From a virus (Duplodnaviria > Heunggongvirae > Uroviricota > Caudoviricetes), in the IMG/VR virus record IMGVR_UViG_2877263951_000003: DNA of 62,478 bases; one strand, written 5' to 3'. Positions 1 to 36,475 of this stretch are shown here, piece after piece; the stretch's first letter is position 1, and each line of letters starts with the position of its first letter. Under the pieces are notes generated by a model that saw only the letters and a program-made list of their open reading frames with translations, made no database searches and was not told the DNA's origin. The position numbers were made by a program, and so were the translations under genes.

Positions 1-1812
1 ATGCTCAGAAACATTTCATCCTGTTTATTTCCACATATCAGCACAATTACATCCCCCAACCATTATTTGTCCGAATGGGATGATTGGGAGAAACAGGGGT
101 TACCGGAAGAACAGCGTACTGAGGCGGTAAGAAGACTTCGTGCATGTCTTACCTCTAAGGGGCATAAACTGGACCTGCGAGCCTTGGCGCTTTCCTCGCT
201 ACCTGTACTCCCTGCTTGCATTAAAAAGCTTGATGTGAGCTGTAATAAATTAACCATCCTTACTGATTTACCTGAAAATATTAAAGAACTTATTGCAAGA
301 GATAATTTCTTAACACATATATCTGCATTACCACATTATCTAATAACTTTGGATGTGTCCGAAAATCAATTAGAGAATCTGCCGTTATTACCAGACACCA
401 TCAAATCACTAAGCGCAGAGTATAATAGGTTATCCACACTGCCTTCATTACCCTTGAATTTAAAAAAACTTGAGGTTAGGAACAACGAACTGCAAACTCT
501 TCCATCTCTGCCTTCTAATCTTAAGATACTTAAGGTTGCGCACAACCATCTTACTGAACTGCCCCCTTTACCTAGGAGACTGCAACTTCTTTTTGCATAT
601 AGCAATAGATTAAGCAACTTACCAAACATCCAAGAAAATATTATCATGAGAAGATTTTTTTATTTTGAAAACAACCAAATAACTACAATCCCGACAAATC
701 TTTTTCGTTTAGATCCTCATATAACTATTGAGATTGCAAATAACCCCTTATCAGATCAAACTCTGCTATTCTTAATACAGCAAACTTCGGTTCCAAATTT
801 TAACGGGCCTCAGTTTCGTATTTCCCTGTCAGACCAAAACAGACTGTTTTTACGCCAGATGTTGCCGCAAAATTTACATTCGCGCCATATCAGAGTCATC
901 ACTGAAGGGGGGCAGAACTTTCAGATCCCCCCTCTTCCCGAAACTGTGGCAGCCTGGTTTCCTGAAGCAGATCGTCGGGAGGTTTCTACACAATGGACTT
1001 CTTTTTCCACCGAGGAGAATTCCCGGGCATTCTCCGCGTTCCTTGACCGCCTTTCCGATACCGTCTCTGCACGCAATACCTCCGGATTCCGTGAACAGGT
1101 CGCTGCATGGCTGGAAAAACTCAGTGCCTCTGCGGAGCTTCGACAGCAGTCTTTCGCTGTTGCTGCTGATGCCACTGAGAGCTGTGAGGACCGTGTCGCG
1201 CTCACATGGAACAATCTCCGGAAAACCCTCCTGGTCCATCAGGCATCTGAAGGCCTTTTCGATAATGATACCGGCGCTCTGCTCTCCCTGGGCAGGGAAA
1301 TGTTCCGCCTCGAAATTCTGGAGGACATTGCCCGGGATAAAGTCAGAACTCTCCATTTTGTGGATGAGATAGAAGTCTACCTGGCCTTCCAGACCATGCT
1401 CGCAGAGAAACTTCAGCTCTCCACTGCCGTGAAGGAAATGCGTTTCTATGGCGTGTCGGGAGTGACAGCAAATGACCTCCGCACTGCCGAAGCCATGGTC
1501 AGAAGCCGTGAAGAGAATGAATTTACGGACTGGTTCTCCCTCTGGGGACCATGGCATGCTGTACTGAAGCGTACGGAAGCTGACCGCTGGGCGCAGGCAG
1601 AAGAGCAGAAGTATGAGATGCTGGAGAATGAGTACCCTCAGAGGGTGGCTGACCGGCTGAAAGCATCCGGTCTGAGCGATGATGCGGATGCGGAGAGGGA
1701 AGCAGGAGCACAGGTGATGCGTGAGACTGAACAGCAGATTTACCGTCAGCTGACTGACGAGGTACTGGCCCTGCGATTGTCTGAAAACGGCTCACAACTG
1801 CACCATTCATAA
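1..1812 (+). CDS. ipaH: IpaH-family type III effector, LRR domain plus C-terminal NEL E3 ubiquitin ligase domain
   Basis: N-terminal half is leucine-rich repeats (LxxLPxLPxxL); C-terminal ~300 aa contains the CEDR catalytic Cys motif and ends ...ENGSQLHHS; C-terminal domain near-identical to the CDS at 59656..61419. The ORF begins at window position 1, so the true N-terminus may lie upstream of the window. Confidence 0.85.
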   Translation: MLRNISSCLFPHISTITSPNHYLSEWDDWEKQGLPEEQRTEAVRRLRACLTSKGHKLDLRALALSSLPVLPACIKKLDVSCNKLTILTDLPENIKELIARDNFLTHISALPHYLITLDVSENQLENLPLLPDTIKSLSAEYNRLSTLPSLPLNLKKLEVRNNELQTLPSLPSNLKILKVAHNHLTELPPLPRRLQLLFAYSNRLSNLPNIQENIIMRRFFYFENNQITTIPTNLFRLDPHITIEIANNPLSDQTLLFLIQQTSVPNFNGPQFRISLSDQNRLFLRQMLPQNLHSRHIRVITEGGQNFQIPPLPETVAAWFPEADRREVSTQWTSFSTEENSRAFSAFLDRLSDTVSARNTSGFREQVAAWLEKLSASAELRQQSFAVAADATESCEDRVALTWNNLRKTLLVHQASEGLFDNDTGALLSLGREMFRLEILEDIARDKVRTLHFVDEIEVYLAFQTMLAEKLQLSTAVKEMRFYGVSGVTANDLRTAEAMVRSREENEFTDWFSLWGPWHAVLKRTEADRWAQAEEQKYEMLENEYPQRVADRLKASGLSDDADAEREAGAQVMRETEQQIYRQLTDEVLALRLSENGSQLHHS

Positions 1813-5637: not shown

Positions 5638-6806
<1,169 letters not shown>

Positions 6807-6922
6807 CCACTTCAGTTTTCTGTCTGAGGGTTCATGCTGTACCCAGTTGTAATAACCGCTCCTGGATACACCAAATACCTGACACATCGCTTCAATGGGA
6901 AATTGTTGTCGCCATTGTTCGA

Positions 6923-7225
6923 TTAACGCGTATTTTTCAGCGACTCCTGTGCAAAATACGCTGTTGCTTTTTTTAATATATCTCGCTCAAGGCGAGCTTC
7001 ATTTAACGCCTTACGCAGTTGCAGAATTTCAGATTCCAGTTCAGCCACCGTGCGGGAACCAGGAGTACCGAGCCCTTTTCTGGCGGCGGTAACCCATTGT
7101 CCTAAAGTGCCTTCAGGAAGGGATAATCGGGAAGCGCCTTCACTGATCGAAAGTTGATTTTCAAGAACCGTTCTGACAGCTTCGGCTTTGAACTCTTTAG
7201 AGTAACGTTGGGTTTTTCTGCTCAT
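6923..7225 (-). CDS. IS600 OrfA (copy B), 100 aa
   Basis: MSRKTQRYSKEFKAEAVRTVLENQLSISEGASRLSLPEGTLGQWV... intact. Confidence 0.85.
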   Translation of the reverse strand: MSRKTQRYSKEFKAEAVRTVLENQLSISEGASRLSLPEGTLGQWVTAARKGLGTPGSRTVAELESEILQLRKALNEARLERDILKKATAYFAQESLKNTR

Positions 7226-7440
7226 TATTAGCTCCTTCTGATGCCATTCTATTTCAGGAAGGAGTGTCCGTTAAACTCAGGCTACCTCAATATGCTTTCC
7301 TTCCAGGTAAACCTCGTGAACAATGTTATCAGTAGTTGCAACAGTGGCTTCATAATTGGTGTTCATGTTTTTCTCCTTAATTAAGGTTGAGCGAATCCCT
7401 GCCATTGCTGGCATAAATTCAGTTTCGAATAGTCAGTTAA

Positions 7441-7722
7441 TTAAAGTTCGTGTGCCATCTGGTCTTTTTCGGCGCAGATTTCACTACAATATTTGCGTTT
7501 CTTTTTCCTCATCATGGTTCCGTGCATGTAAATAAGTTCAGCAGTGTAAGCCTTATCAGGGCTTACTTGTCTGTCACACAGGCCATAAGCACAGGGAATT
7601 AAATCGGGATCACCTTTCTGCTGGAGGTTTTTTTTGATTATCCATAACAAATTTTTGATTCCGGTGTGTGTTATGGTCTGCTGAGGTGCAGAGGTAAAAC
7701 AATAATCAAGCATAGGGTTCAT
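7441..7722 (-). CDS. Hypothetical small Cys-rich protein (93 aa)
   Basis: ORF only; lies directly downstream of rha on the same strand. No family recognised. Confidence 0.3.
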   Translation of the reverse strand: MNPMLDYCFTSAPQQTITHTGIKNLLWIIKKNLQQKGDPDLIPCAYGLCDRQVSPDKAYTAELIYMHGTMMRKKKRKYCSEICAEKDQMAHEL

Positions 7723-7738
7723 ATCCGTAGCTCCATTT

Positions 7739-8293
7739 TTATTTTAAAGAAAGTAATTGTTCCACAGTCATATTTTTAATTGCGCCCCGGTTAACAAGAG
7801 TCCATCCCTGTTTTTCCAGATAAAACCGGAAAGTCTCCAGGGTACAGACCAGTGCGCCATCAGGAACGGTTTCGGTGAATTCGACATTGCCGAATTTGTC
7901 GAAGTGAACAACCAGAGTGCGACCATCACCCGGAATCATCTTGTCAGCAGGTGGGGTGTTATTCTGGCGCAGTTCGGCCTCCATGCGGTCGAACTCAGCA
8001 ATGTAGGCTTCCTTGAATGCGGCGGCTTTTTTGCCAGTGAAGCCCATCACCAGGAAAACGAAGCCGTTTTTGGTGATTTGGTACATTGGGCGTTTTTCGC
8101 CTTTGGCGTCGGTATAGGTGACGGGCTTAAAATTAAGCCGGTTAAACTCCGGCGAGCATTCGAGAGTTTCGATCTTCTGAATAACGTTTTTGTGCATTTT
8201 CCGGAAGAACTCCGCAACCGCAACAGACGTAGTGACAGCGCGACCATTTTCGATGGTTGCGTCAGGGTGAGAAAGGGTAAGGATAGTAGCCAT
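7739..8293 (-). CDS. Phage regulatory protein, Rha family (antirepressor-like)
   Basis: MATILTLSHPDATIENGRAVTTSVAVAEFFRKMHKNVIQKI ... ITKNGFVFLVMGFTGKKAAAFKEAYIAEFDRME. The supplied 318-aa ORF 7739..8695 runs on upstream through a terminator and a structured element; the start is taken at the ATG at 8291..8293. Confidence 0.7.
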   Translation of the reverse strand: MATILTLSHPDATIENGRAVTTSVAVAEFFRKMHKNVIQKIETLECSPEFNRLNFKPVTYTDAKGEKRPMYQITKNGFVFLVMGFTGKKAAAFKEAYIAEFDRMEAELRQNNTPPADKMIPGDGRTLVVHFDKFGNVEFTETVPDGALVCTLETFRFYLEKQGWTLVNRGAIKNMTVEQLLSLK

Positions 8294-8350
8294 GATGGCA
8301 GCCTCGATAGTCAGTTTAAATGACTCACCACCAGAGGTAGCAATCTCATG

Positions 8351-8429
8351 GGTGGTGAGACGCACAGGGTTGCTACAACCGGTGACTACCGAAACCGGCC
8401 AGCCTTGCGGCTGCCCTGCACGCCCCACC
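8351..8429 (-). ncRNA. Candidate structured RNA element upstream of rha (paralog of 22900..22978)
   Basis: 16-bp closing stem GGUGGGGCGUGCAGGG / CCCUGUGCGUCUCACC (4 G-U pairs) enclosing a GCAA-loop hairpin (CAGCC/GGCTG) and a CCGG-12nt-CCGG hairpin; same architecture with compensatory changes in the second copy. Confidence 0.4.
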
Positions 8430-8457
8430 ATAATCTGAATGTGGCTGTGCTTGACGC

Positions 8458-8484
8458 ATAAAAAAACCGCCTGAGCGCGGTTAT
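8458..8484 (-). terminator. Rho-independent terminator immediately upstream of the structured element
   Basis: Minus-strand AACCGC-GCTCAG-GCGGTT followed by TTTTTTT; conserved at 22846..22868. Confidence 0.55.
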
Positions 8485-9134
8485 GCGCAGTAGTCATCGT
8501 CGGGGTAGCAATCCCGGCACCCGTTTTATGAGGTGCAGGTGCACTATAATTCCACCCGTTCTGGTTTTCAATAGCTACATTCAACATTTTCTCTTTCCTT
8601 TCATCACCGAAGTGAACTTTGTTGATGCGGTGCCTGGTGCCTCCAGGTGACGTTAACCAGTTAACAATTACAGTTGGCTTTCCCACCCAAACCAATAAGG
8701 ACTAACATGACTTTTAACTGTGCCGCGTGCGCATAGCCGCATTCACCGCATCACAAAATTCACTTTAAAAAGGGCGGACATCAGCCAGCAATTAAACCGA
8801 TGCCGCCAACTGGTACTTCACACAGCAATGTCGTTATTTACAACCGGAAGCGCACTCCCACCATTTAAATTTCACAGACAAGACCGACTCTTTATGGATA
8901 CCGGAAATGCGCCTTCGTGTTGTGCCCGGTTTTATTTCACCACTTCCGGGCTTTGGTGGTATCTTTACTGAAGTTCTCACACAACCAGTAAGGAAATGAA
9001 TATGCCAACGTATCTCGCCAGAGTAGAACTATATAATGCTGAGTAGACTGGCCCCCTGAATCTCCAGACAACCAGTATCACTTATTTAAGTGATAGTCTT
9101 AATACTAGTTTTTAGACTAGTCATTGGAGAACAG

Positions 9135-10363: not shown

Positions 10364-10604
10364 GGGCAAATCCACTGAGCCAGAGGATTACGAAGGGCTT
10401 CATAAATATATGCTCTCACTAGGATTCAGGAGAACGATCCCCCATGGAGATGGTTCGTATAATCAACTCCCGGACGGAACTTATGTTTCCGAAAAGGGCG
10501 GTGATATTTATCAAATTCGCAGCCAGATATCTGACTATGCAGACCGACTATCCGGGTATCGCGCGTCTGTTTTTGTTTGCGAATTCAGTCAATGCGCATG
10601 GTAT

Positions 10605-10805
10605 TTATACCCCGCCAAGACCCGGTGAATATCCTGCACGGCCTTCTGCTTTGTAGAAGGCTTCTTCGCTATCATAATCGCCAGATTCCAGCGCTTCTTT
10701 AGCCAGCCAGATGCGTGCCCCAGTGCCTGCATTTGGCTCCAGTTGCTGGAGGCGTTTTGCATCTTCTAGGAGTAGAGCGATAACGTGTTTTAATTCTGTC
10801 TCGTT
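10605..10805 (-). CDS. Hypothetical small phage protein
   Basis: ORF MNETELKHVIALLLEDAKRLQQLEPNAGTGARIWLAKEALESGDYDSEE...; sits between IS2 and the repressor, as the small ydaG/ydaF-type genes do in Rac. Weak. Confidence 0.3.
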   Translation of the reverse strand, partial: NETELKHVIALLLEDAKRLQQLEPNAGTGARIWLAKEALESGDYDSEEAFYKAEGRAGYSPGLGGV

Positions 10806-10809
10806 CATT

Positions 10810-10965
10810 TTACTCACCTGAATGTCTTCCCAACCAACGACGTGCGCCAGCTTCGGTTTTAAACGTTTTGCTTTTGGTATACGTTATGGCGGTGAATGTG
10901 CCGTCCTGGTTGGGGAACACGCCGTACACCGGAGATTCGTTGTTGCCAAGATCGATAGTATTCAT
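10810..10965 (-). CDS. Hypothetical small phage protein (51 aa)
   Basis: MNTIDLGNNESPVYGVFPNQDGTFTAITYTKSKTFKTEAGARRWLGRHSGE; ORF only. Confidence 0.3.
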   Translation of the reverse strand: MNTIDLGNNESPVYGVFPNQDGTFTAITYTKSKTFKTEAGARRWLGRHSGE

Positions 10966-11167
10966 GTTGACCCCATTTCCCCTTAACGCCGGGGTAGCGG
11001 AACTGTTTGCTGAGAACACCGTGCGGTGTCTTGATGAATAAAATTTAGAATAACCTAAGGAGGGTGATCAAGATTTTTGTGTAGAAAAACCTAAGTTTTT
11101 TGATGTAAAAAACACAAGTGTTTGAAAGTTTGTGCTTTTTATTACAGGGTGTGGAGAAAAAAGGGGA

Positions 11168-11575
11168 TTATTTGTTTGAGCTTCTTTTGCGAGCTTTGAG
11201 TAGTTCTTCAAAAAGTTTGTTGAAATTTTCAACTCGAGCACGCATCTCTGACAACAGGGCCTTTTGCTCTGACTCAGGCAGTGCGTCGAACAGTTGAAGT
11301 AACTCTTTTTGATCTTCTGTCAGAATGGCTGGCTGATTATCCGGGATCGGTTCGCCTGGTTGTTTATCTTCATCCCCAAAAAGAAGCCAAGTCGGTGAGC
11401 ACTGAAGCGCTTGGCTCAGTGCGAATAATCTTTTCCCCGCCGGCTGTGTTTCATCTCTTTCCCATTGAGAAATTGTTACGTGAGCCACTTTGACCAGCTT
11501 ACCTAATGCGGCCTGAGACAGTTTTAATTTTTTACGCCTATGTAAGAGGCGAGCACCGAAGGTTTCGTTTTTCAT
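11168..11575 (-). CDS. Prophage repressor, XRE-family HTH (RacR/CI-like, no peptidase domain)
   Basis: HTH segment LSQAALGKLVKVAHVTISQWERDETQP; divergently transcribed from a cro-like gene across a 76-bp region containing palindromes. Confidence 0.7.
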   Translation of the reverse strand: MKNETFGARLLHRRKKLKLSQAALGKLVKVAHVTISQWERDETQPAGKRLFALSQALQCSPTWLLFGDEDKQPGEPIPDNQPAILTEDQKELLQLFDALPESEQKALLSEMRARVENFNKLFEELLKARKRSSNK

Positions 11576-11576
11576 A

Positions 11577-11643
11577 TTAGGGAATTCTAATTTTTCTTGA
11601 CTTAGGTTTCTCTACGGCCTGGTTTCCTTAGGAAAATCTAAGG
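11577..11643. promoter_or_regulatory. Candidate operator/promoter region between repressor and cro-like gene
   Basis: Palindromes ATTAGGGAATTCTAAT (11577..11592) and CCTTAGGAAAATCTAAGG (11626..11643), extra CTTAGG half-site at 11601..11606, -35-like TTGACT at 11596..11601. Confidence 0.4.
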
Positions 11644-11651
11644 AGCTCGAT

Positions 11652-11877
11652 ATGTTGAAAATTGATGCTATAGCGTTTTTTGGCAGCAAAACAAAGCTTG
11701 CCAATGCCGCAGGAGTTAGGCTGGCAAGCATTGCTGCATGGGGGAACTGGTTCCTGAAGGTCGCGCGATGCGCCTGCAAGAGGCATCTGGCGGGGAACTT
11801 CAGTACGACCCCAAAGTTTATGACGAATATCGTAAGGCAAAACGACCTGGGAAGGTGATTCATGAAAATCAGGCATG
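11652..11877 (+). pseudogene. Cro-like (YdaS-family) regulator with a frameshift in a G5 run
   Basis: MLKIDAIAFFGSKTKLANAAGVRLASIAAW then a frame change at GGGGG 11740..11744; the other frame continues ELVPEGRAMRLQEASGGELQYDPKVYDEYRKAKRPGKVIHENQA* with a stop overlapping the next gene's start. Confidence 0.55.
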
Positions 11878-12284
11878 AGCACATCGAATCAGTGCTGTTA
11901 GCCTTGGCAGCCGAAAAAGGGCAGGCGTGGGTCGCTAACGCAATTACTGAAGAATATCTGCGGCAGGGGGGCGGCGAATTGTCTCTGGTACCAGGCAAGG
12001 ACTGGAACAATCAGCAGAATATCTATCACCGTTGGTTGAAAGGTGAAACGAAAGCGCAAAGGGAAAAAATTCAGAAACTGATCCCTGCGGTTCTGGCAAT
12101 TCTTCCGCGTGAGCTGCGTCACCGACTCTGTATCTTCGATACCCTGGAACGCCGTGCATTACTGGCGGCGCAGGAAGCGTTGAGTACGGCAATTGATGCG
12201 CATGATGATGCTGTCCAGGCCGTTTACCGGAAAGCACATTTCAGCGGTGGTGGGTCGCCCGGCGATTCTGTCGTAGTGCATTGA
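11862..12284 (+). CDS. ydaT: YdaT-like protein (Rac prophage toxin homolog)
   Basis: MKIRHEHIESVLLALAAEKGQAWVANAITEEYLRQGGGEL... 140 aa; recalled as near-identical to E. coli K-12 Rac YdaT. Confidence 0.6.
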   Translation: MKIRHEHIESVLLALAAEKGQAWVANAITEEYLRQGGGELSLVPGKDWNNQQNIYHRWLKGETKAQREKIQKLIPAVLAILPRELRHRLCIFDTLERRALLAAQEALSTAIDAHDDAVQAVYRKAHFSGGGSPGDSVVVH

Positions 12285-12361
12285 TTGAAATTAATCGTGC
12301 CGGATTGTTTTGTTCGGTATCAGTTAAATGTAACGCTGCGAGCGTTACAAGGTGAAAACAA

Positions 12362-13145
12362 ATGGCTTCAAACTGGATAAAGCTCGAGGTTATTACGCCG
12401 GATAAGCCGGAAATATTCAGGCTTGCTGAGATTCTGAATATTGATCCAGATGCCGCATTAGGGAAGGTTATTCGCTTCTGGGCATGGGCGGATCAACAAA
12501 TGATAGACGGTAATGCAGATTGTAACGCTCGCGGCGTTACAAAAAGTGCAATAGATCGCATCACTTTTATGTCTGGTTTTGCTGATGCGTTAATTCAGGT
12601 TGGATGGCTGGTCGAAAATGACGGTGGGCTTTCTCTACCTAACTTTGAACGTCATAACGGAAAAAGCTCTAAAAAACGGGCGGTTACAAACGAGCGAGTA
12701 ACAAAAATACGCGAACTGAAACGAAAAGGTAACGCTGCCAGCGTTACACAAACGGATCAAAAAGCGTTACCAGTGGAAGAGGAAGAGGAAGAGGAAGATC
12801 TAAATACTGATCTCCCCCTAAATCCCCCTCGCCAAAAACGAGCGTCTAAAAAATTCGAGCCGGAGGCTATTGAGCTGCCCGATTGGTTGCCGGAAACACT
12901 CTGGCATGAGTGGGTCCGGTTCAGACAGGCATTGCGAAAACCGATTCGAACGGAGCAGGGCGATACGGGAACTGGAAAAATTCCGTCAGCAGGGTTTTAC
13001 ACCTGAGCAGGTGATTCGACACAGCATCGCCAATGAATACCAGGGCCTGTTCGCGCCGAAAGGTGTTCGGCCTGAGACGTTGCTCCGACAGGTTAACACC
13101 GTCTCGTTGCCGGACAGTGCGATCCCGCCAGGCTTCAGGGGGTAA
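12362..13145 (+). pseudogene. YdaU-like replication protein, frameshifted
   Basis: ORF 12362..13006 and overlapping ORF 12870..13145 (..AIRELEKFRQQGFTPEQVIRHSIANEYQGLFAPKG..) are in different frames; together about 261 codons, consistent with one gene split by an indel near 12900..13006. Contains a (GAAGAG)n run encoding EEEEEEE. Confidence 0.5.
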
Positions 13146-13151
13146 CGGACC

Positions 13152-13898
13152 ATGAAAAATATTGCGACAGGCGGCGTTCTGGAACGCATCCGCCGACTGA
13201 CCCCGCAACATGTAACCGCCCCATTCAGAACGGTAGCGGAGTGGCGCGAGTGGCAACTTGCTGAAGGCCAGAAACGTAGCGAGGAGATCAACCGCCTGAA
13301 TCGCCAGTTGCGGGTGGAAAAAATTCTGAATCGCTCAGGCATCCAGCCGTTGCACCGTAAATGCTCGTTTGCGAATTACCAGGTGCAGAACGACGGCCAG
13401 CGATACGCGTTAAGCCAGGCGAAATCCATCGCCGATGAACTGATGACCGGGTGTACAAATTTTGCGTTCAGCGGAAAACCTGATACCGGGTAGAATCACT
13501 TAGCGGCAGCTATCGGGAACCGCCTGCTGAAAGACGGTCAGACAGTGATTGTGGTTACCGTGGCTGATGTTATGAGCGCCCTGCACGCCAGCTATGACGA
13601 CGGGCAGTCAGGCGAAAAATTTTTGCGGGAGCTGTGCGAAGTGGATCTGCTGGTTCTTGATGAAATTGGCATTCAGCGCGAGACGAAAAACGAGCAGGTG
13701 GTGCTGCACCAGATTGTTGATCGCCGGACAGCGTCGATGCGCAGCGTGGGGATGCTGACAAACCTGAACTATGAGGTGATGAAAACATTGCTCGGCGAGC
13801 GGGTGATGGATCGCATGGTCATGAAAGGCGGGCGCTGGGTTAATTTTAACTGGGAGAGCTGGCGTCCGAATGTTAGCCATTCGAGGGTTGTTAAGTAG
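13152..13898 (+). pseudogene. YdaV-like DnaC/IstB-family ATPase with an amber codon in the Walker A motif
   Basis: ...FSGKPDTG-TAG-NHLAAAIGNRLLKDGQTVIVVTVADV...LLVLDEIGIQRE...; TAG at 13491..13493 where a Lys codon (GKPGTGK) is expected; downstream frame intact to 13898. Confidence 0.7.
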
Positions 13899-13912
13899 TT
13901 TCAGGAGGATTT

Positions 13913-14335
13913 ATGGCGAAACCTTTTACTCCCGAACAGCGGGAAGAACTGAAGACGCGAATTGTGGAACTCGTGCATCAGGACGGTCGGGTCACGATTC
14001 GGCAGTTGTCCGATGAAACAGGTATCAGTCGTGCGTCTGTCGGTCGCTTATGCATAGAACTGGTCGCAAGTGGTGATGTATATAATTCTGGCTACGGCTT
14101 ATTCCCGTCTGAACAGGCTCGCAAGGACTGGCAAAGCGCCCGCAAAAAACTCTCGAGAGTAAAGGTGAGGAAACCGGTTGTTGTTGATCCGGACCTTATC
14201 TGGTCATTACCTGACGGAGAAATACGCCGCTACGACAGGCGCCTGAATATAATCTGTCGCGAGTGCCGGAAGAGCGAAGCTATGCAGCGTGTACTGGCTT
14301 TCTATCAGGGTAATTTTCAGGAGGCGATACTGTGA
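13913..14335 (+). CDS. Hypothetical phage protein with putative winged-helix region
   Basis: ORF with RBS GGAGG upstream; motif VTIRQLSDETGISRASVGRLC. Confidence 0.45.
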   Translation: MAKPFTPEQREELKTRIVELVHQDGRVTIRQLSDETGISRASVGRLCIELVASGDVYNSGYGLFPSEQARKDWQSARKKLSRVKVRKPVVVDPDLIWSLPDGEIRRYDRRLNIICRECRKSEAMQRVLAFYQGNFQEAIL

Positions 14336-14392
14336 ATGAAATTAGCTATCAGGCTTCAATTACCGCTGGCATTCGCATCAAAGGAGAGGAGC

Positions 14393-14749
14393 ATGGAAAT
14401 AAAACCAGAAGATGAGTTAAGCAATATCGTTTTATTTCCGATAAAAGAGGATGACCCTCGTAATCAGGTTAATTTTCTTTATAAGCCATCGGAAAGACCA
14501 TATTGCCATCACGCCTCTGTACGGGTTGACGAAAAAGAGCGTCAGGTCCGCTGTAAAATCTGCGGTGCGGTTGTGGAGCCGTTTGACTGGATGCTCTCTG
14601 TGGCAAAAAGAGAAACCAGACTGGCAGATGATGTAAGGCTATTGCGCCAGGAGGAACAGGAAAGGCGGAGAAATATAGAAAAGCTGATACAGATTGAGCG
14701 TAACGCGAAAGCGCGGATACGCAGGGCGACAAAATCCAGAACTGAATAA
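14393..14749 (+). CDS. Hypothetical phage protein with CxxC pair
   Basis: MEIKPEDELSNIVLFPIKEDD...CHHASVRVDEKERQVRCKICGAV..; RBS GGAGAGGAGC upstream of the internal ATG at 14393. Confidence 0.4.
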   Translation: MEIKPEDELSNIVLFPIKEDDPRNQVNFLYKPSERPYCHHASVRVDEKERQVRCKICGAVVEPFDWMLSVAKRETRLADDVRLLRQEEQERRRNIEKLIQIERNAKARIRRATKSRTE

Positions 14750-14896
14750 TTAAATTTAGCACTGTTAAAAATTTAATCCTTAACCGGAGGGATTTCTGCA
14801 CCCTCAAATCATCAGGAGACCGCCCGAAAGGGCGGGGAGCAGTCACACATCTGTTTCCGATAGCCCCGTTCTAATGCTACACTCTTTGATATTTTT

Positions 14897-15583
14897 ATGA
14901 CCTCAATAAACATATTTATGACAGTTGCTGATTTCAAACGGCCCAAATTGGAGCTCCCAAACGGGGCAAACAAACTACTACTGCACTCTTGCTGTGCTCC
15001 ATGTTCCGGTGAGGTGATGGAGGCGCTTCAGGCCTCGGGAATCGACTACACCATCTTTTTCTACAACCCGAACATTCATCCTCAGAAAGAGTATTTAATT
15101 CGTAAGGATGAGAATATTCGCTTTGCTGAACAACACGGCGTGCCGTTTATTGATGCTGATTACGACACAGACAACTGGTTTGAACGAGCCAAAGGAATGG
15201 AATGGGAGCCCGAACGAGGGATCCGTTGCACCATGTGTTTTGACATGCGTTTTGAGCGGACAGCGCTGTACGCCGCTGAAAATGGTTTCAGTGTGATCAG
15301 CAGTTCACTGGGCATTTCACGCTGGAAAAATATGCAGCAGGTTAACGACTGTGGGCGGCGAGCCGTCGCGCATTATCCGGGCATGGTGTACTGGGATTAT
15401 AACTGGCGCAAGCAGGGCGGCTCGTCCCGTATGATTGAAATCAGCAAGCGCGAAAAATTCTATCAGCAGGAATATTGTGGCTGTGTGTATTCTCTGCGCG
15501 ATACCAATCTACACCGCAAATCTCAGGGACGCCCTCTTATCAAAATTGGTCAACTCCACTACGGTAAAGAAGAGAAGGAGTGA
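14897..15583 (+). CDS. QueH-like (DUF208) putative epoxyqueuosine reductase
   Basis: Motif [14 protein letters not shown] plus further conserved Cys (RCTMCFD, YCGCVY), which I recall as the Fe-S ligand pattern of QueH/DUF208; start uncertain (14897 or 14918). Confidence 0.5.
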
Positions 15584-15810
15584 TTTTATGGGGCACCTTT
15601 CTGATTGATTTCATATTGGCGAGGTAAGTAGAATGACTGCGGGTGCTTGAGGCTATCTGCTTCAGGCATGAACACCAAAAGGCAGATAGAGAAAAGCCCC
15701 AGTTAACATTACGCGTCCGGCAAGACGCTTAACATTAATCTGAGGCCAATTTCATGCTTTGCACATGTAGGTTAGCCTCTTACATGCCGAAAGGCAAGGA
15801 GAAGCAGGCT

Positions 15811-15966
15811 ATGAAGCAGCAAAAGGCGATGTTAATCGCCCTGATCGTCATCTGTTTAACCGTCATAGTGACGGCACTGGTAACGAGGAAAGACCTCTGT
15901 GAGGTACGAATCCGAACCGGCCAGACGGAGGTCGCTGTCTTCGTAGACTACGAATCCAGGAAGTAA
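15811..15966 (+). CDS. Hok/Gef-family membrane toxin (type I toxin)
   Basis: MKQQKAMLIALIVICLTVIVTALVTRKDLCEVRIRTGQTEVAVFVDYESRK; overlapping upstream mok-like leader frame from 15754; stem-loop-rich leader. Confidence 0.75.
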   Translation: MKQQKAMLIALIVICLTVIVTALVTRKDLCEVRIRTGQTEVAVFVDYESRK

Positions 15967-16043
15967 GAGTGACCGGGTGGGGAGCTGATCCCATCCCCGC
16001 CCACCTCTGATGTGTCAGGCATCCTCAACGCACCCGCACTTAA

Positions 16044-16089
16044 CCCGCCCATCGCTGTGATCTCTCAGCGTTTCGGCGGGTTTTTTGTT
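16044..16089 (+). terminator. Rho-independent terminator downstream of hok
   Basis: CCCGCC ... GGCGGG stem followed by TTTTTTGTTGTTT. Confidence 0.55.
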
Positions 16090-16215
16090 GTTTATTTCCG
16101 GTGAATTTGATTCGCGCACCTTCGCAGATAGAATCGACTCACTTAAGTAGCGCGCAGGGAGAAGAGGGATGGACCCCGAACAGGGGAGAGCTATTTATCT
16201 GGAAGGATTCTGAAG

Positions 16216-16503
16216 ATGAAAATCGAAGAATTGCGTGAAATTTTTAGTGAAAATGGCCTCTATGCTGTGCGCGTTGAGAATGGAGCGATTGTCAGCCATT
16301 GCCGCATTAGATGTTTGCAATCTCAACAAAGGAAGAGCGGTGCTGTGTTATTTTATTTTTGTAATGGACTTCTGACGGACGGTTTTATTTTGCGTGAGGA
16401 CGAATTTGTCACATCATTACGGGTTTTGAAAAAGATTGGTTTTAAGGCTGGTTTTCTGCTTTTGCTGAAGAATAAACTCATCTACAATCTTGAGCAGGAT
16501 TGA
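16216..16503 (+). CDS. Hypothetical protein (95 aa)
   Basis: ORF only, moderate RBS. Confidence 0.3.
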   Translation: MKIEELREIFSENGLYAVRVENGAIVSHCRIRCLQSQQRKSGAVLFYFCNGLLTDGFILREDEFVTSLRVLKKIGFKAGFLLLLKNKLIYNLEQD

Positions 16504-16953
16504 ACTCCTGCTGTGTAACACCGTGCCACCGGAGAAAGCCGATGGCACATATACAACTGGTCAAACAAACCTCTTCCGGATTACTTCTCCCGGCGACGCC
16601 GGAGAGTTGCGATTTTCTGCATCAAATCAAAATAGGTGAGTGGATACACGCAGACTTTAAGCGTGTGCGTAACTACGCATTCCACAAGCGTTTTTTCAAA
16701 CTCCTGCAACTGGGTTTCGATTACTGGACTCCGGTCGGTGGGGCGATCACGCCTCGCGAACGAAAACTGGTGTCCGGTTTCGTTGATTACCTGTGTGAAT
16801 CAGTAGGCCGGGAACATACGCCAGCTCTGAGCGAAGCCGCAGAGCAATATCTGAATACAGTTGCGACACGCAGAACCCGTGATACGGCATTGCTAAAGTC
16901 GTTTGAGGCTTGAGGTGTACTGGCAATAGCGGACACTACCATTTGTTCTTTTT

Positions 16954-17745
16954 TTAAGCAGTCATCTGATGATATTTTTCCCTGAAGGCTGCCGGGGAGA
17001 TATTCCCCAGACGAGAGTGACGACGCTGACGATTGTAGAAAATCTCAATGTATTCCCGTATTACTGAGATGGCTTCATCCCGGTTATTAAAACGATAGTG
17101 GCTCAGGCTCTCATTTTTCAGCGTTCCCCAGAAGCTTTCCATCGGAGCGTTGTCGTAACAGTTACCTTTACGCGACATTGATGTTTTCAGACCAGACTGC
17201 TCCTGTATGACCCGGTAATCGTATGCGCAGTACTGTGAACCTCGATCAGAGTGGTGGATTAGCCCGGCAGGTGGGCGCTGGCTCCTGAGCGCCATAAACA
17301 GGGCTTTACCTGTCAGCTCTTTTGTCATGCGCTCTCCCATGGCGTAGCCGACAATTTCGCACGTATAAACATCTTTGATGCCAGCAACATACGTCAGGTC
17401 CGCCACCCAGACCTGATTTGGTGCTGTAGGAGCGAACGTCTGGTTCAGCAGATTTGGCGCAACTGGCAGATTGTGGTTCGGGTTCGTAGTCGCTCTGAAC
17501 TTGCGTTTCTGCTTACAGCGTAGCCTCAGCTCCTTACGAAGACGTGCCAGTCGGTCACGACCAACGATGATGCCATTCTCTGCCAGCTCCGTCTGGAGCC
17601 GCCGGGTTCCATATGTTTCGCGAGTGCGGATATGTGCCACCTTAATCTCCAGTTTTAGCCGCTCATCACTTTGTTTTCTGTCTGAGGGTTCATGCTGTAC
17701 CCAGTTGTAATAACCGCTCCTGGATACACCAAATACCTGACACAT
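16954..17745 (-). CDS. IS600 orfB with 9-codon in-frame deletion (probably inactive)
   Basis: 263 aa; LTYVAGIKD in place of LTYVATQEGWLYLAGIKD, i.e. loss of residues just after the first catalytic Asp. Confidence 0.8.
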   Translation of the reverse strand: MCQVFGVSRSGYYNWVQHEPSDRKQSDERLKLEIKVAHIRTRETYGTRRLQTELAENGIIVGRDRLARLRKELRLRCKQKRKFRATTNPNHNLPVAPNLLNQTFAPTAPNQVWVADLTYVAGIKDVYTCEIVGYAMGERMTKELTGKALFMALRSQRPPAGLIHHSDRGSQYCAYDYRVIQEQSGLKTSMSRKGNCYDNAPMESFWGTLKNESLSHYRFNNRDEAISVIREYIEIFYNRQRRHSRLGNISPAAFREKYHQMTA

Positions 17746-17780
17746 CGCTTCAATGGGAAATTGTTGTCGCCATTGTTCGA

Positions 17781-18083
17781 TTAACGCGTATTTTTCAGCG
17801 ACTCCTGTGCAAAATACGCTGTTGCTTTTTTTAATATATCTCGCTCAAGGCGAGCTTCATTTAACGCCTTACGCAGTTGCAGAATTTCAGATTCCAGTTC
17901 AGCCACCGTGCGGGAACCAGGAGTACCGAGCCCTTTTCTGGCGGCGGTAACCCATTGTCCTAAAGTGCCTTCAGGAAGGGATAATCGGGAAGCGCCTTCA
18001 CTGATCGAAAGTTGATTTTCAAGAACCGTTCTGACAGCTTCGGCTTTGAACTCTTTAGAGTAACGTTGGGTTTTTCTGCTCAT
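17781..18083 (-). CDS. IS600 OrfA (copy C)
   Basis: Identical to the other intact orfA copies. Confidence 0.85.
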   Translation of the reverse strand: MSRKTQRYSKEFKAEAVRTVLENQLSISEGASRLSLPEGTLGQWVTAARKGLGTPGSRTVAELESEILQLRKALNEARLERDILKKATAYFAQESLKNTR

Positions 18084-18380
18084 TATTAGCTCCTTCTGAT
18101 GCCATTCTATTTCAGGAAGGAGTGTCCGTTAAACTCAGGCTACCTCAGCTTTCCGCGAGTGGGTAGCCATTCAGGCCGGATTTTACACCGAGCATTTTTA
18201 TCCGGACGGTAGCCGTGGGTGTCGGGCGAAATCTATCGCGTTTGCGAATATGGACGAAACCGAGTTTCAGCAGGTTTATAAATCTGTACTGAATGTGCTG
18301 TGGAACTGGATTCTGTTCCGTAAATTTTCCTCTCCGGAACAAGTCGAAAATGTGGCCGCGCAGCTGCTGGAGTTTGCGTA

Positions 18381-22716: not shown

Positions 22717-22845
22717 TACAGCAAAACATAACAAAATCGTTATATCTGCACAATATATTGATTCTGCAATTTCGGGACGTTACACTGTCTCTGCACCTTA
22801 TAAAGCGGGGGCCGGGATTGGCGTCCTGAAATTCAATATAGAGCA

Positions 22846-22868
22846 TAACCGCGCTCATGCGGTTTTTT
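22846..22868 (+). terminator. Rho-independent terminator upstream of the structured element and rha
   Basis: AACCGC-GCTCAT-GCGGTT followed by TTTTTT; paralog at 8458..8484. Confidence 0.55.
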
Positions 22869-22899
22869 CGTGTCATGAGCATTGCTACGCCCAAATTAT

Positions 22900-22978
22900 G
22901 GTGGGGCGTGCAGGGACATCGCAAGATGCGCCGGGTTCTATGTTGACCGGTTACGCCAACCCTGTACGTCTCACCACC
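22900..22978 (+). ncRNA. Candidate structured RNA element upstream of rha
   Basis: Closing stem 22900..22915 (GGTGGGGCGTGCAGGG) with 22960..22975 (CCCTGTACGTCTCACC); GCAA-loop hairpin CATC/GATG at 22917..22928; CCGG-12nt-CCGG hairpin at 22931..22950; stems differ from the paralog at 8351..8429 by compensatory changes. Confidence 0.4.
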
Positions 22979-23035
22979 TCTGTGATTGGCGTCCCATGTG
23001 GTGAGTTCTTTGAATTCAACATAGGGGCTGTCACC

Positions 23036-28122: not shown

Positions 28123-28199
28123 GGCCCTTTAGCTCAGTTGGTCAGAGCGAGCGACTCATAATCGCCAGGTCGCTGGTTCAAGTCCAGCAAGGGCCACCA
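28123..28199 (+). tRNA. tRNA-Ile2-like (anticodon CAT; Met-type anticodon, Ile2 by similarity to ileX/ileZ)
   Basis: Cloverleaf: acceptor GGCCCTT/AAGGGCC, D-stem GCTC/GAGC, anticodon loop CTCATAA, T-stem GCTGG/CCAGC, encoded CCA. Confidence 0.8.
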
Positions 28200-28200
28200 A

Positions 28201-28277
28201 CCACCACTAGCTCATCCGGATAGAGCATCAACCTTCTAAGTTGACGGTGCGAGGTTCGAGTCCTCGGTGGTGGGCCA
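28201..28277 (+). tRNA. tRNA-Arg (anticodon TCT)
   Basis: Acceptor CCACCAC/GTGGTGG, anticodon stem TCAAC/GTTGA, loop CTTCTAA, T-loop TTCGAGT, encoded CCA. Confidence 0.75.
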
Positions 28278-28279
28278 GC

Positions 28280-28355
<76 letters not shown>

Positions 28356-28358
28356 TAT

Positions 28359-28433
<75 letters not shown>

Positions 28434-35388: not shown

Positions 35389-36148
<760 letters not shown>

Positions 36149-36152
<4 letters not shown>

Positions 36153-36475
36153 TTTTTCCAGAGGCGGTCGAACTCCGCCTTCGCAAAATAAGCGGAAGCC
36201 TGGCGAAGGATATCGTTACTGCGGCGCAGTTCACGATTTTCACGCTCCGGCTCTTTCAGACGCTGACGTTCAGCGGTGGTGAGCCCTCCATCACCGCCCC
36301 CGGTATCCCGCTCATGCTGGCGACCCCAGACACGCAGAGTCTCCGGCGTACAGCCAATCTTTGGAGCAATGGAACAAATTGTCGCCCATTGTGAGTCATA
36401 TTCGCCCTGACTTTCCAGAACCATACGGACTGCCCGTTGACGGACTTCGGGGGAAAAACGAGTATTTTTAGTCAT
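36149..36475 (-). CDS. IS629-like OrfA
   Basis: [50 protein letters not shown]... Confidence 0.8.

Follow-up and report, generated by a model that had tools for sequence, protein, structure and literature searches.

A queH tRNA-modification gene and a hok/sok-type locus as separate cargo cassettes in a Rac-like prophage remnant

The window analysed here, a stretch of 62,478 nucleotides (nt) of Caudoviricetes DNA held in IMG/VR as record IMGVR_UViG_2877263951_000003, carries two neighbouring genes inside a Rac-like prophage remnant: queH, predicted to encode an epoxyqueuosine reductase acting in the last step of queuosine (Q) formation in tRNA, and hok, the toxin gene of a type I toxin-antitoxin locus (hok/mok/sok). 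Taken together, the evidence favours, at a probability of roughly 0.6, a joint reading in which the two are independent accessory cassettes in the variable slot that separates the replication genes of the prophage from its nin/Q region, with QueH serving lysogens as a back-up that does not depend on cobalamin (vitamin B12), and hok/sok being a canonical system. Both genes belong to known families and had already been named by automated annotation, and the hok/sok part is ordinary. What is modestly new is that a housekeeping tRNA-hypermodification enzyme is found as conserved temperate-phage cargo in approximately 18% of Escherichia coli, where a cobalamin-dependent core enzyme makes it redundant.

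Identity of the QueH protein

The open reading frame (ORF) at positions 14897-15583 (228 amino acids, aa) was compared with the Pfam profile QueH (PF02677, formerly DUF208), and matched it over profile positions 1-174 of 175 with an E-value of 1.9e-65 and a score of 220.6 bits (cut-off 23.5). An earlier reading of the DNA (the original prediction) had called a DUF208/QueH-like ORF with a CCAPC cysteine motif; the family assignment was confirmed by this hidden Markov model search, and the motif was found in the translation. The gene most likely starts at 14918, seven codons inside the ORF, because this start is used by the Prokaryotic Genome Annotation Pipeline (PGAP), the N-termini of orthologues align there, and 14916 is where nucleotide homology with chromosomal queH sets in. 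The orthologues in the alignment that start at the equivalent position are those of Erwinia, Photorhabdus, Providencia and others, and the PGAP annotation ('epoxyqueuosine reductase QueH', WP_012421537.1) was made on identical DNA of E. coli FDAARGOS_944. Of the span 14897-15966 first proposed for the two genes, the genes themselves stood but neither end did, 14918 being the likelier start of queH and the hok RNA locus ending further downstream (about 16035-16090).

14918-15583, + strand: queH, epoxyqueuosine reductase QueH, 221 aa (PF02677 match, PDB 7LC5 match, PGAP name)

A sequence match was also obtained to the solved QueH of Thermotoga maritima (PDB 7LC5; E-value 5e-22, 31-33% identity). 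In an alignment of the window protein with T. maritima QueH and six orthologues, six cysteines were invariant, namely C25/C26 (CCAP), C104/C107 (RCxxC) and C187/C189 (YCGC); the conserved cysteines of QueH are said, from work by Li and colleagues in 2021, to be ligands of a [4Fe-4S] cluster and an adjacent iron. An AlphaFold model of the window protein (predicted local distance difference test score 68.7, predicted template-modelling (TM) score 0.70) had five QueH entries as its best matches in the PDB, with target-normalised TM scores of 0.82-0.85 and a probability of 1.0 (7LC5, TM 0.83). Common to the window protein and T. maritima QueH (7LC5, 7LC7) are thus the six cysteines (CC, RCxxC and YCGC), the predicted fold and a full-length family match, whereas the window copy has CCAPC where T. 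maritima has CCAPD, and is located on a lambdoid prophage whose hosts also possess QueG. The PHROGs family of the protein, phrog_3217, is listed as 'unknown function', and its profile begins at residue 34, so that the CCAPC motif falls outside it. PADLOC gave no match for the window QueH. Judged by sequence and predicted fold, the ORF is a genuine QueH and a member of this Fe-S family.

Chromosomal origin and selection

The closest relatives of the window QueH outside Escherichia were found in Scandinavium (92% aa identity), Kluyvera (91%) and Enterobacter (89-90%), the chromosomal QueH proteins of Scandinavium, Kluyvera, Enterobacter and Erwinia being 80-92% identical to it. In these four genera, queH is located among ordinary metabolic genes, and in the first three it has none of the prophage neighbours. 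The prophage gene, at approximately 90% aa identity, therefore appears to derive from a chromosomal Enterobacteriaceae queH that was captured by phage. Among five prophage queH alleles there were up to 45 synonymous and at most 9 non-synonymous differences, which corresponds to a ratio of non-synonymous to synonymous divergence (dN/dS) of 0.03-0.09 at a dS of up to 0.45, and frameshifts were absent. Such values are the signature of purifying selection on prophage queH.

Upstream motif and putative promoter

Upstream of queH, one short element was conserved:

14875-14883, + strand: TGCTACACT, an extended -10-like motif and putative queH promoter, with the -10 hexamer TACACT at 14878-14883

The motif is situated 34 nt upstream of the queH ATG (14918). 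The string ATGCTAC was invariant across eight prophage queH upstream regions, two of which had otherwise unrelated flanks, and the chromosomal queH genes of Scandinavium, Kluyvera, Enterobacter and Symbiopectobacterium were preceded, at an equal distance, by TGCTACA(A/C)T. Either TGCTACACT or TGCTACAAT was present 35-45 nt ahead of the start codon in the closest chromosomal queH and in all eight aligned prophage upstream regions, and GCTAC was found upstream of the gene in 121 of 131 close prophage copies. A view based on blastn, that homology was limited to the coding sequence and that the native promoter had not been captured, was dropped after the upstream alignment revealed TGCTACA(A/C)T. 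Since the motif is common to chromosomal and prophage copies despite unrelated flanks, we infer that the putative promoter (window 14875-14883) travelled from the chromosome along with the gene.

Distribution and neighbourhood of queH

Out of 5426 complete E. coli genomes, 995 (approximately 18%) carried queH, nearly always as one chromosomal copy, while queG was present in all 5426. Among the carriers were the sequence type 131 (ST131) strain EC958, APEC O1, E. coli B REL606 and one O157:H7 strain; BL21 is likewise queH-positive, and K-12 MG1655 queH-negative. The gene was annotated as QueH in 30 of 30 queH-positive genomes sampled, at 98-100% coverage in 29 of them. In REL606, queH (ECB_RS08105) is located in the Qin prophage beside a complete hokD locus, whereas the Qin prophage of K-12 is without queH, its corresponding place being held by relBE, which has also replaced the hokD leader. 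E. coli B is also the strain in whose tRNA Q was first described, according to reference 1 as cited in PMC4646009.

The position of queH in these prophages was constant on its 5' side, where it always followed a DUF977 gene in the interval from the replication genes to the nin/Q region, and variable on its 3' side. The 3' neighbour was hok in EC958, in E. coli B and in the window, a Dcm-type methyltransferase together with an NgoMIV-family restriction endonuclease (in the place of hok/sok) in O157:H7 Z1831, and a DUF1971 gene in GPEC657. A census of 149 loci on IMG/VR viral contigs, of which 140 and 130 had enough upstream and downstream DNA, respectively, gave DUF977 upstream of queH in 114 of 140 and hok downstream in 90 of 130 (approximately 70%). 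Because hok is replaced by a restriction-modification system or a DUF1971 gene in related prophages, queH and hok are separate cassettes in a variable cargo hotspot, and the QueH-hok pairing that the original prediction had implied did not hold. Moron cassettes are characterised by presence or absence among related phages, a promoter of their own and often their own terminator. In its variable presence (18% of genomes, with K-12 Qin lacking it), queH resembles such a cassette, and it is a probable 'moron' among the cargo of Rac/Qin-like lambdoid prophages.

One isolated phage, HannyBb, encodes a QueH with 97.7% aa identity that is annotated as 'hypothetical'. A prophage of a different type (L187; IMG/VR UViG_2923634449_000004, 5938-8521) carries a QueH that is 88% identical; its gene is encoded on the other strand from the replication genes and early operon, right beside an AIPR/AbiU-like abortive-infection gene, and this opposite orientation fits expression in the lysogen. 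One further candidate, 'Acinetobacter phage MD-2021a' (CAKLQH020000001.1, 328 kb; 79% identity), was rejected as a phage, the genes around its QueH (soxR, tadA, cynX and yagE) looking chromosomal. Most of the 'Bacteriophage sp.' faecal contigs with queH were short, unannotated and uninformative. Viral contigs with a 36%-identical QueH came from one metagenome, and others had a QueH of 75-83% identity.

The hok/mok/sok locus

Downstream of queH, the following elements were identified:

15605-15634, + strand: hok/mok mRNA promoter, TTGATT, 18-nt spacer and TAGAAT (promoter scan)
15641-15816, + strand: hok mRNA leader from +1 to the hok AUG, containing the Sok target (Rfam RF01794), with the tac element GGGUGCUUGAGG at 15641-15652
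15690-15797, - strand: candidate sok antisense RNA gene, with a predicted RNA from about 15762 to about 15690 (position of sokW in phage 933W; hairpin)
15754-15966, + strand: mok reading frame, 70 aa (ORF list; layout as for mokW/hokW in 933W)
15811-15966, + strand: hok toxin gene, 51 aa, PGAP name 'type I toxin-antitoxin system toxin HokD' (Pfam HOK_GEF)
16023-16035, + strand: fold-back inhibition (fbi) element CCUCAACGCACCC, complementary to the 5' tac (minimum free energy fold)
16042-16090, + strand: intrinsic terminator ending the hok transcript, an enlarged-loop hairpin AACCCGCC...GGCGGGUU with a U-run behind it (fold)

The 70-aa ORF matched the Pfam family HOK_GEF (PF01848) with an E-value of 9.8e-23 and 79.9 bits (cut-off 22), and mok and hok share one frame and one stop codon. 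The Hok peptide was identical to K-12 HokD at 46 of 51 residues (90%), and the gene matched PHROG 251, 'MokW-like host killing', with an E-value of 1.3e-32. At 15641-15816, the Rfam model 'sok' (RF01794) was matched in full (model positions 1-157) with 117 bits (gathering score 59); what this model describes is not the antisense RNA but the leader of the hok mRNA, on the sense strand, as far as the hok AUG, and its first matched base, 15641, coincides with the predicted +1 of the hok promoter. In the minimum free energy fold of 15641-16040, the tac element pairs with 16023-16035 (z = -7.1), and the latter, the fbi element, hardly varied across five hok loci (one substitution, in REL606). The candidate Sok RNA is predicted to fold into one long hairpin (z = -5.4) whose tail is rich in U. 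For sok, promoter-like hexamers were read by eye (-35 TTGCCT at 15797-15792, a 17-nt spacer, and -10 TAACCT at 15774-15769); the promoter scan did not flag this putative promoter. A terminator of its own for the toxin gene, as had been noted along with the hok family assignment, was borne out by the hairpin and T-run at 16042-16090 (-24.2 kcal/mol, z = -5.4), the other hok loci having the compact form AACCCGC-TTCG-GCGGGTT followed by a T-run.

The locus has the same -10, tac element, in-frame overlap of mok and hok, predicted Sok position, fbi element and terminator as hok/sok of plasmid R1, hokW/mokW/sokW of 933W and other hok loci, and thus appears, with its Sok RNA predicted, to be a complete canonical type I toxin-antitoxin locus in which all RNA elements are present. 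In K-12 hokD (hokD/relF, in Qin), by contrast, the leader has been lost to relBE, while the window copy keeps the whole regulatory leader. Three indels are private to the window copy: 10 bp are deleted from the promoter spacer, approximately 7 nt have been inserted in the 3' hairpin, and the terminator loop is enlarged. The window shares its -10 hexamer with 933W, EC958 and REL606, whereas 10 bp found between the -35 (TTGGCG) and -10 (TAGAAT) of EC958 and REL606 are absent from the window (at 15624/15625), where a different hexamer, TTGATT, takes the -35 place at 18-nt spacing. If the locus acts as its relatives do, the stable hok mRNA would be kept silent by 5'-3' (tac-fbi) pairing, and the unstable cis-antisense Sok RNA would block translation of mok and hence of hok. 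On loss of Sok, the 51-aa Hok peptide would damage the membrane, so that the locus may stabilise the element or abort phage infection.

Proposed role of QueH and alternatives

QueH would reduce epoxyqueuosine-34 (oQ) to queuosine-34 in the tRNAs for Asp, Asn, His and Tyr without cobalamin. The gene, taken by a phage from an Enterobacteriaceae chromosome, would probably be driven in the lysogen by the conserved extended -10-like motif. QueG, too, catalyses this reaction (EC 1.17.99.6), with which queuosine formation is completed (PMC4646009, PMC5372724); it is a cobalamin-dependent enzyme (PMC4646009) of an unrelated family, and the oQ-to-Q step needs cobalamin in E. coli and Salmonella (Frey et al. 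1988, as cited in PMC4646009); QueH is the cobalamin-independent alternative (PMC5615194, PMC11906303). A comparable arrangement is that of Staphylococcus aureus, where a putative QueG and a putative QueH were proposed to be used redundantly according to cofactor availability (PMC13443448). In both species, two putative non-orthologous oQ reductases with different cofactors would occur in one cell, but both genes are chromosomal in S. aureus, whereas the second enzyme of E. coli is delivered by a prophage and only to approximately 18% of strains. QueG, by comparison, is encoded by a core gene (5426/5426) and QueH by an accessory one (995/5426).

E. coli is without de novo cobalamin synthesis. 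Since QueG, which every E. coli and Shigella host has, needs a cofactor that these hosts cannot make de novo, a prophage QueH would free the last Q step from corrinoid supply, and a B12-independent back-up for the conversion of oQ to Q in lysogens is the most likely role of the gene. The suggestion in the original prediction that it could alter host tRNA modification is accordingly the best supported of its proposals. Three things had escaped that prediction, namely the presence of QueG in every E. coli, the wide spread of queH in prophages and the promoter-like motif that the gene appears to have kept. A stronger form of this idea is tentative: QueH may act as a lysogenic-conversion gene through which queuosine maturation no longer hinges on corrinoid supply, in which case lysogens (approximately 18% of E. 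coli, with E. coli B/REL606, ST131 and the Shigella-like strain of the window among them) would have fully reduced Q without B12 while K-12-type strains would accumulate oQ.

Several observations weigh against the joint reading. The motif upstream of queH was not flagged by the consensus promoter scan, no obvious Shine-Dalgarno sequence was seen for the gene, and the stretch separating it from the hok promoter contained no terminator for queH. The literature searched contained no reports of expression or activity of a prophage queH, and we know of no phenotype that separates oQ-tRNA from Q-tRNA, a selective benefit thus being unproven. The low dN/dS could partly reflect divergence of chromosomal donors before separate captures, or recombination. 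NCBIfam gave no model match for the window protein, and Asp13 of T. maritima QueH (mutated to D13N in PDB 9DCO) corresponds to Cys29 in the window copy. This cysteine appears to be a lineage-wide variant and not damage, because all 14 close proteobacterial orthologues aligned also have Cys at the equivalent position, and cysteine can likewise bind iron. For the toxin locus, the 10-bp promoter deletion may have altered hok transcription in the window.

An unlikely alternative is that QueH serves lytic growth and not the lysogen, being transcribed with the early operon and tuning the decoding of NAU and NAC codons for phage protein synthesis. The location of the Rac/Qin-like queH directly downstream of the replication genes and on their strand is in keeping with this, as is the presence of queH in an isolated phage (HannyBb). 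However, tRNA turnover is limited inside one lytic cycle, queH is intact in prophages that are no longer able to replicate, the gene has kept a housekeeping-type promoter-like motif, and in L187 its strand is opposite to the early operon. The phage tRNAs of the window (Met, Arg, Thr and Gly) are also not Q-tRNAs; a link between QueH and these tRNA genes was rejected, as none of the four has a GUN anticodon.

A similarly low probability is given to QueH being a functionless passenger that is redundant with QueG and hitch-hikes with hok/sok or defence cargo. The universal presence of queG in the 5426 genomes, the lack of a phenotype known to us for oQ versus Q, and the use of the slot as a mobile-cargo hotspot could all be explained in this way, but a gene without function would hardly combine a dN/dS of 0.03-0.09 at a dS of up to 0.45 with no frameshifts in five alleles, or be annotated as QueH in all 30 sampled genomes with 29 at 98-100% coverage. 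QueH has also been kept where other genes replaced hok.

It is considerably less probable that QueH belongs to conflict systems, either through an effect of the wobble-base state on the susceptibility of GUN-tRNAs to anticodon nucleases or colicins, or by making the loss of BtuB cheaper; the slot otherwise holds hok/sok, a restriction-modification system or AIPR/AbiU, which is circumstantial, whereas PADLOC had no match for QueH and a dedicated partner gene co-occurring with it is absent. Least probable is the proposal, put forward in the original prediction, that the gene belongs, as a component or a remnant, to a pathway by which phages modify their DNA with 7-deazaguanines. Bases derived from preQ0 do occur in phage DNA (PMC6884629), but this reading was contradicted by the absence of Pfam domains of DpdA/TGT, FolE, QueC, QueD and QueE from the 26 ORFs of the window that were scanned (20 larger ones at 1-31000, two elsewhere and four neighbours of QueH and hok) and of such genes from the annotation of related prophages, by the near identity of the gene to a chromosomal housekeeping queH whose substrate oQ is made on tRNA by QueA, and by the survey of Hutinet et al. 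2019, in which no QueA, QueG or QueH was found in the viruses analysed, including those with deazaguanine in their DNA (PMC6884629).

State of the prophage and its surroundings

The region 10375-16911 was 99.3% identical to a prophage adjoining ybhA in E. coli FDAARGOS_944, in which the gene order is RecE, Rha, YdaT, ydaV and DUF977, then QueH, hokD, DUF1367, DUF1364 and DUF1133. Relative to this intact prophage, four lesions were found in the window:

11739: 1-bp deletion in the cro-like gene (frameshift)
12957: 11-bp deletion in the O-like replication gene
13491: nonsense codon in ydaV (DnaC-like)
16912-18147: IS3-family insertion sequence (IS) element splitting the DUF1367 gene

In queH and hok, by comparison, there were no coding changes. 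The window prophage copy is thus dead, with its two cargo cassettes (queH and hok/sok) still intact. The description 'Rac-like prophage remnant', given at the outset by the original prediction, is apt because the cro-like, O-like, ydaV and DUF1367 genes are broken and the genes flanking queH/hok are of Rac type (RecE/exonuclease VIII, Rha, YdaT, ydaV and DUF977).

Between the DUF977 gene and queH lies an ORF of 137 aa (14336-14749, + strand; 118 aa in the PGAP annotation) with a weak zinc-ribbon match (PF08271, E-value 2e-4, below the cut-off) that belongs to PHROG 1621, 'unknown function'. Genes of the ipaH type (NEL E3-ligase domain and LRR_TTSS) were found at both ends of the window, at 1-1812 (+ strand, cut by the edge) and 59656-61419 (- strand); flanking the prophage region as they do, they point to host DNA of a Shigella or enteroinvasive E. 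coli chromosome with prophage-borne ipaH islands. Insertion sequences are numerous across the window, with transposase ORFs of 272 aa and 279 aa present in three copies each, and an ALIL pseudoknot, the frameshift element of the IS3 family, was located at 36078-36194 (- strand). The antisense RNA pair isrK and C4 (Rfam) occurred in two copies, at 8348-8536 (- strand) and 22793-22981 (+ strand), each by Rha/Ash-family ORFs, which suggests two anti-repressor-type regulatory modules out of two different prophage fragments. A second lambdoid prophage, more complete than the first (approximately 20100-58500), carries a cluster of phage tRNA genes at 28123-28433, downstream of a gene for a Q antiterminator; the four are Met(CAU), Arg(UCU), Thr(UGU) and Gly(UCC), and the homologue of Met(CAU) in FDAARGOS_944 is named tRNA-Ile by PGAP.

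Significance

No discussion of a phage or prophage QueH was found in the literature searched. Two records are corrected by the present results, namely the entry of phrog_3217 in PHROGs as 'unknown function', this family being QueH, and the lack of QueA, QueG and QueH in the viruses analysed by the 2019 survey (PMC6884629). If QueH is indeed a lysogenic-conversion gene, a fitness gain would be possible where B12 is scarce or once the BtuB receptor has been lost, and this would be the first tRNA-hypermodification step known to come from a temperate phage. Queuosine influences decoding speed and accuracy. The Q pathway has in addition been linked to Shigella virulence via tgt and VirF (PMC1950534). 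Were the prophage QueH active, a tRNA modification in such common strains as E. coli B/REL606 and ST131 would not be the same as in K-12 when these are grown in the laboratory without B12, which would matter for studies of translation.

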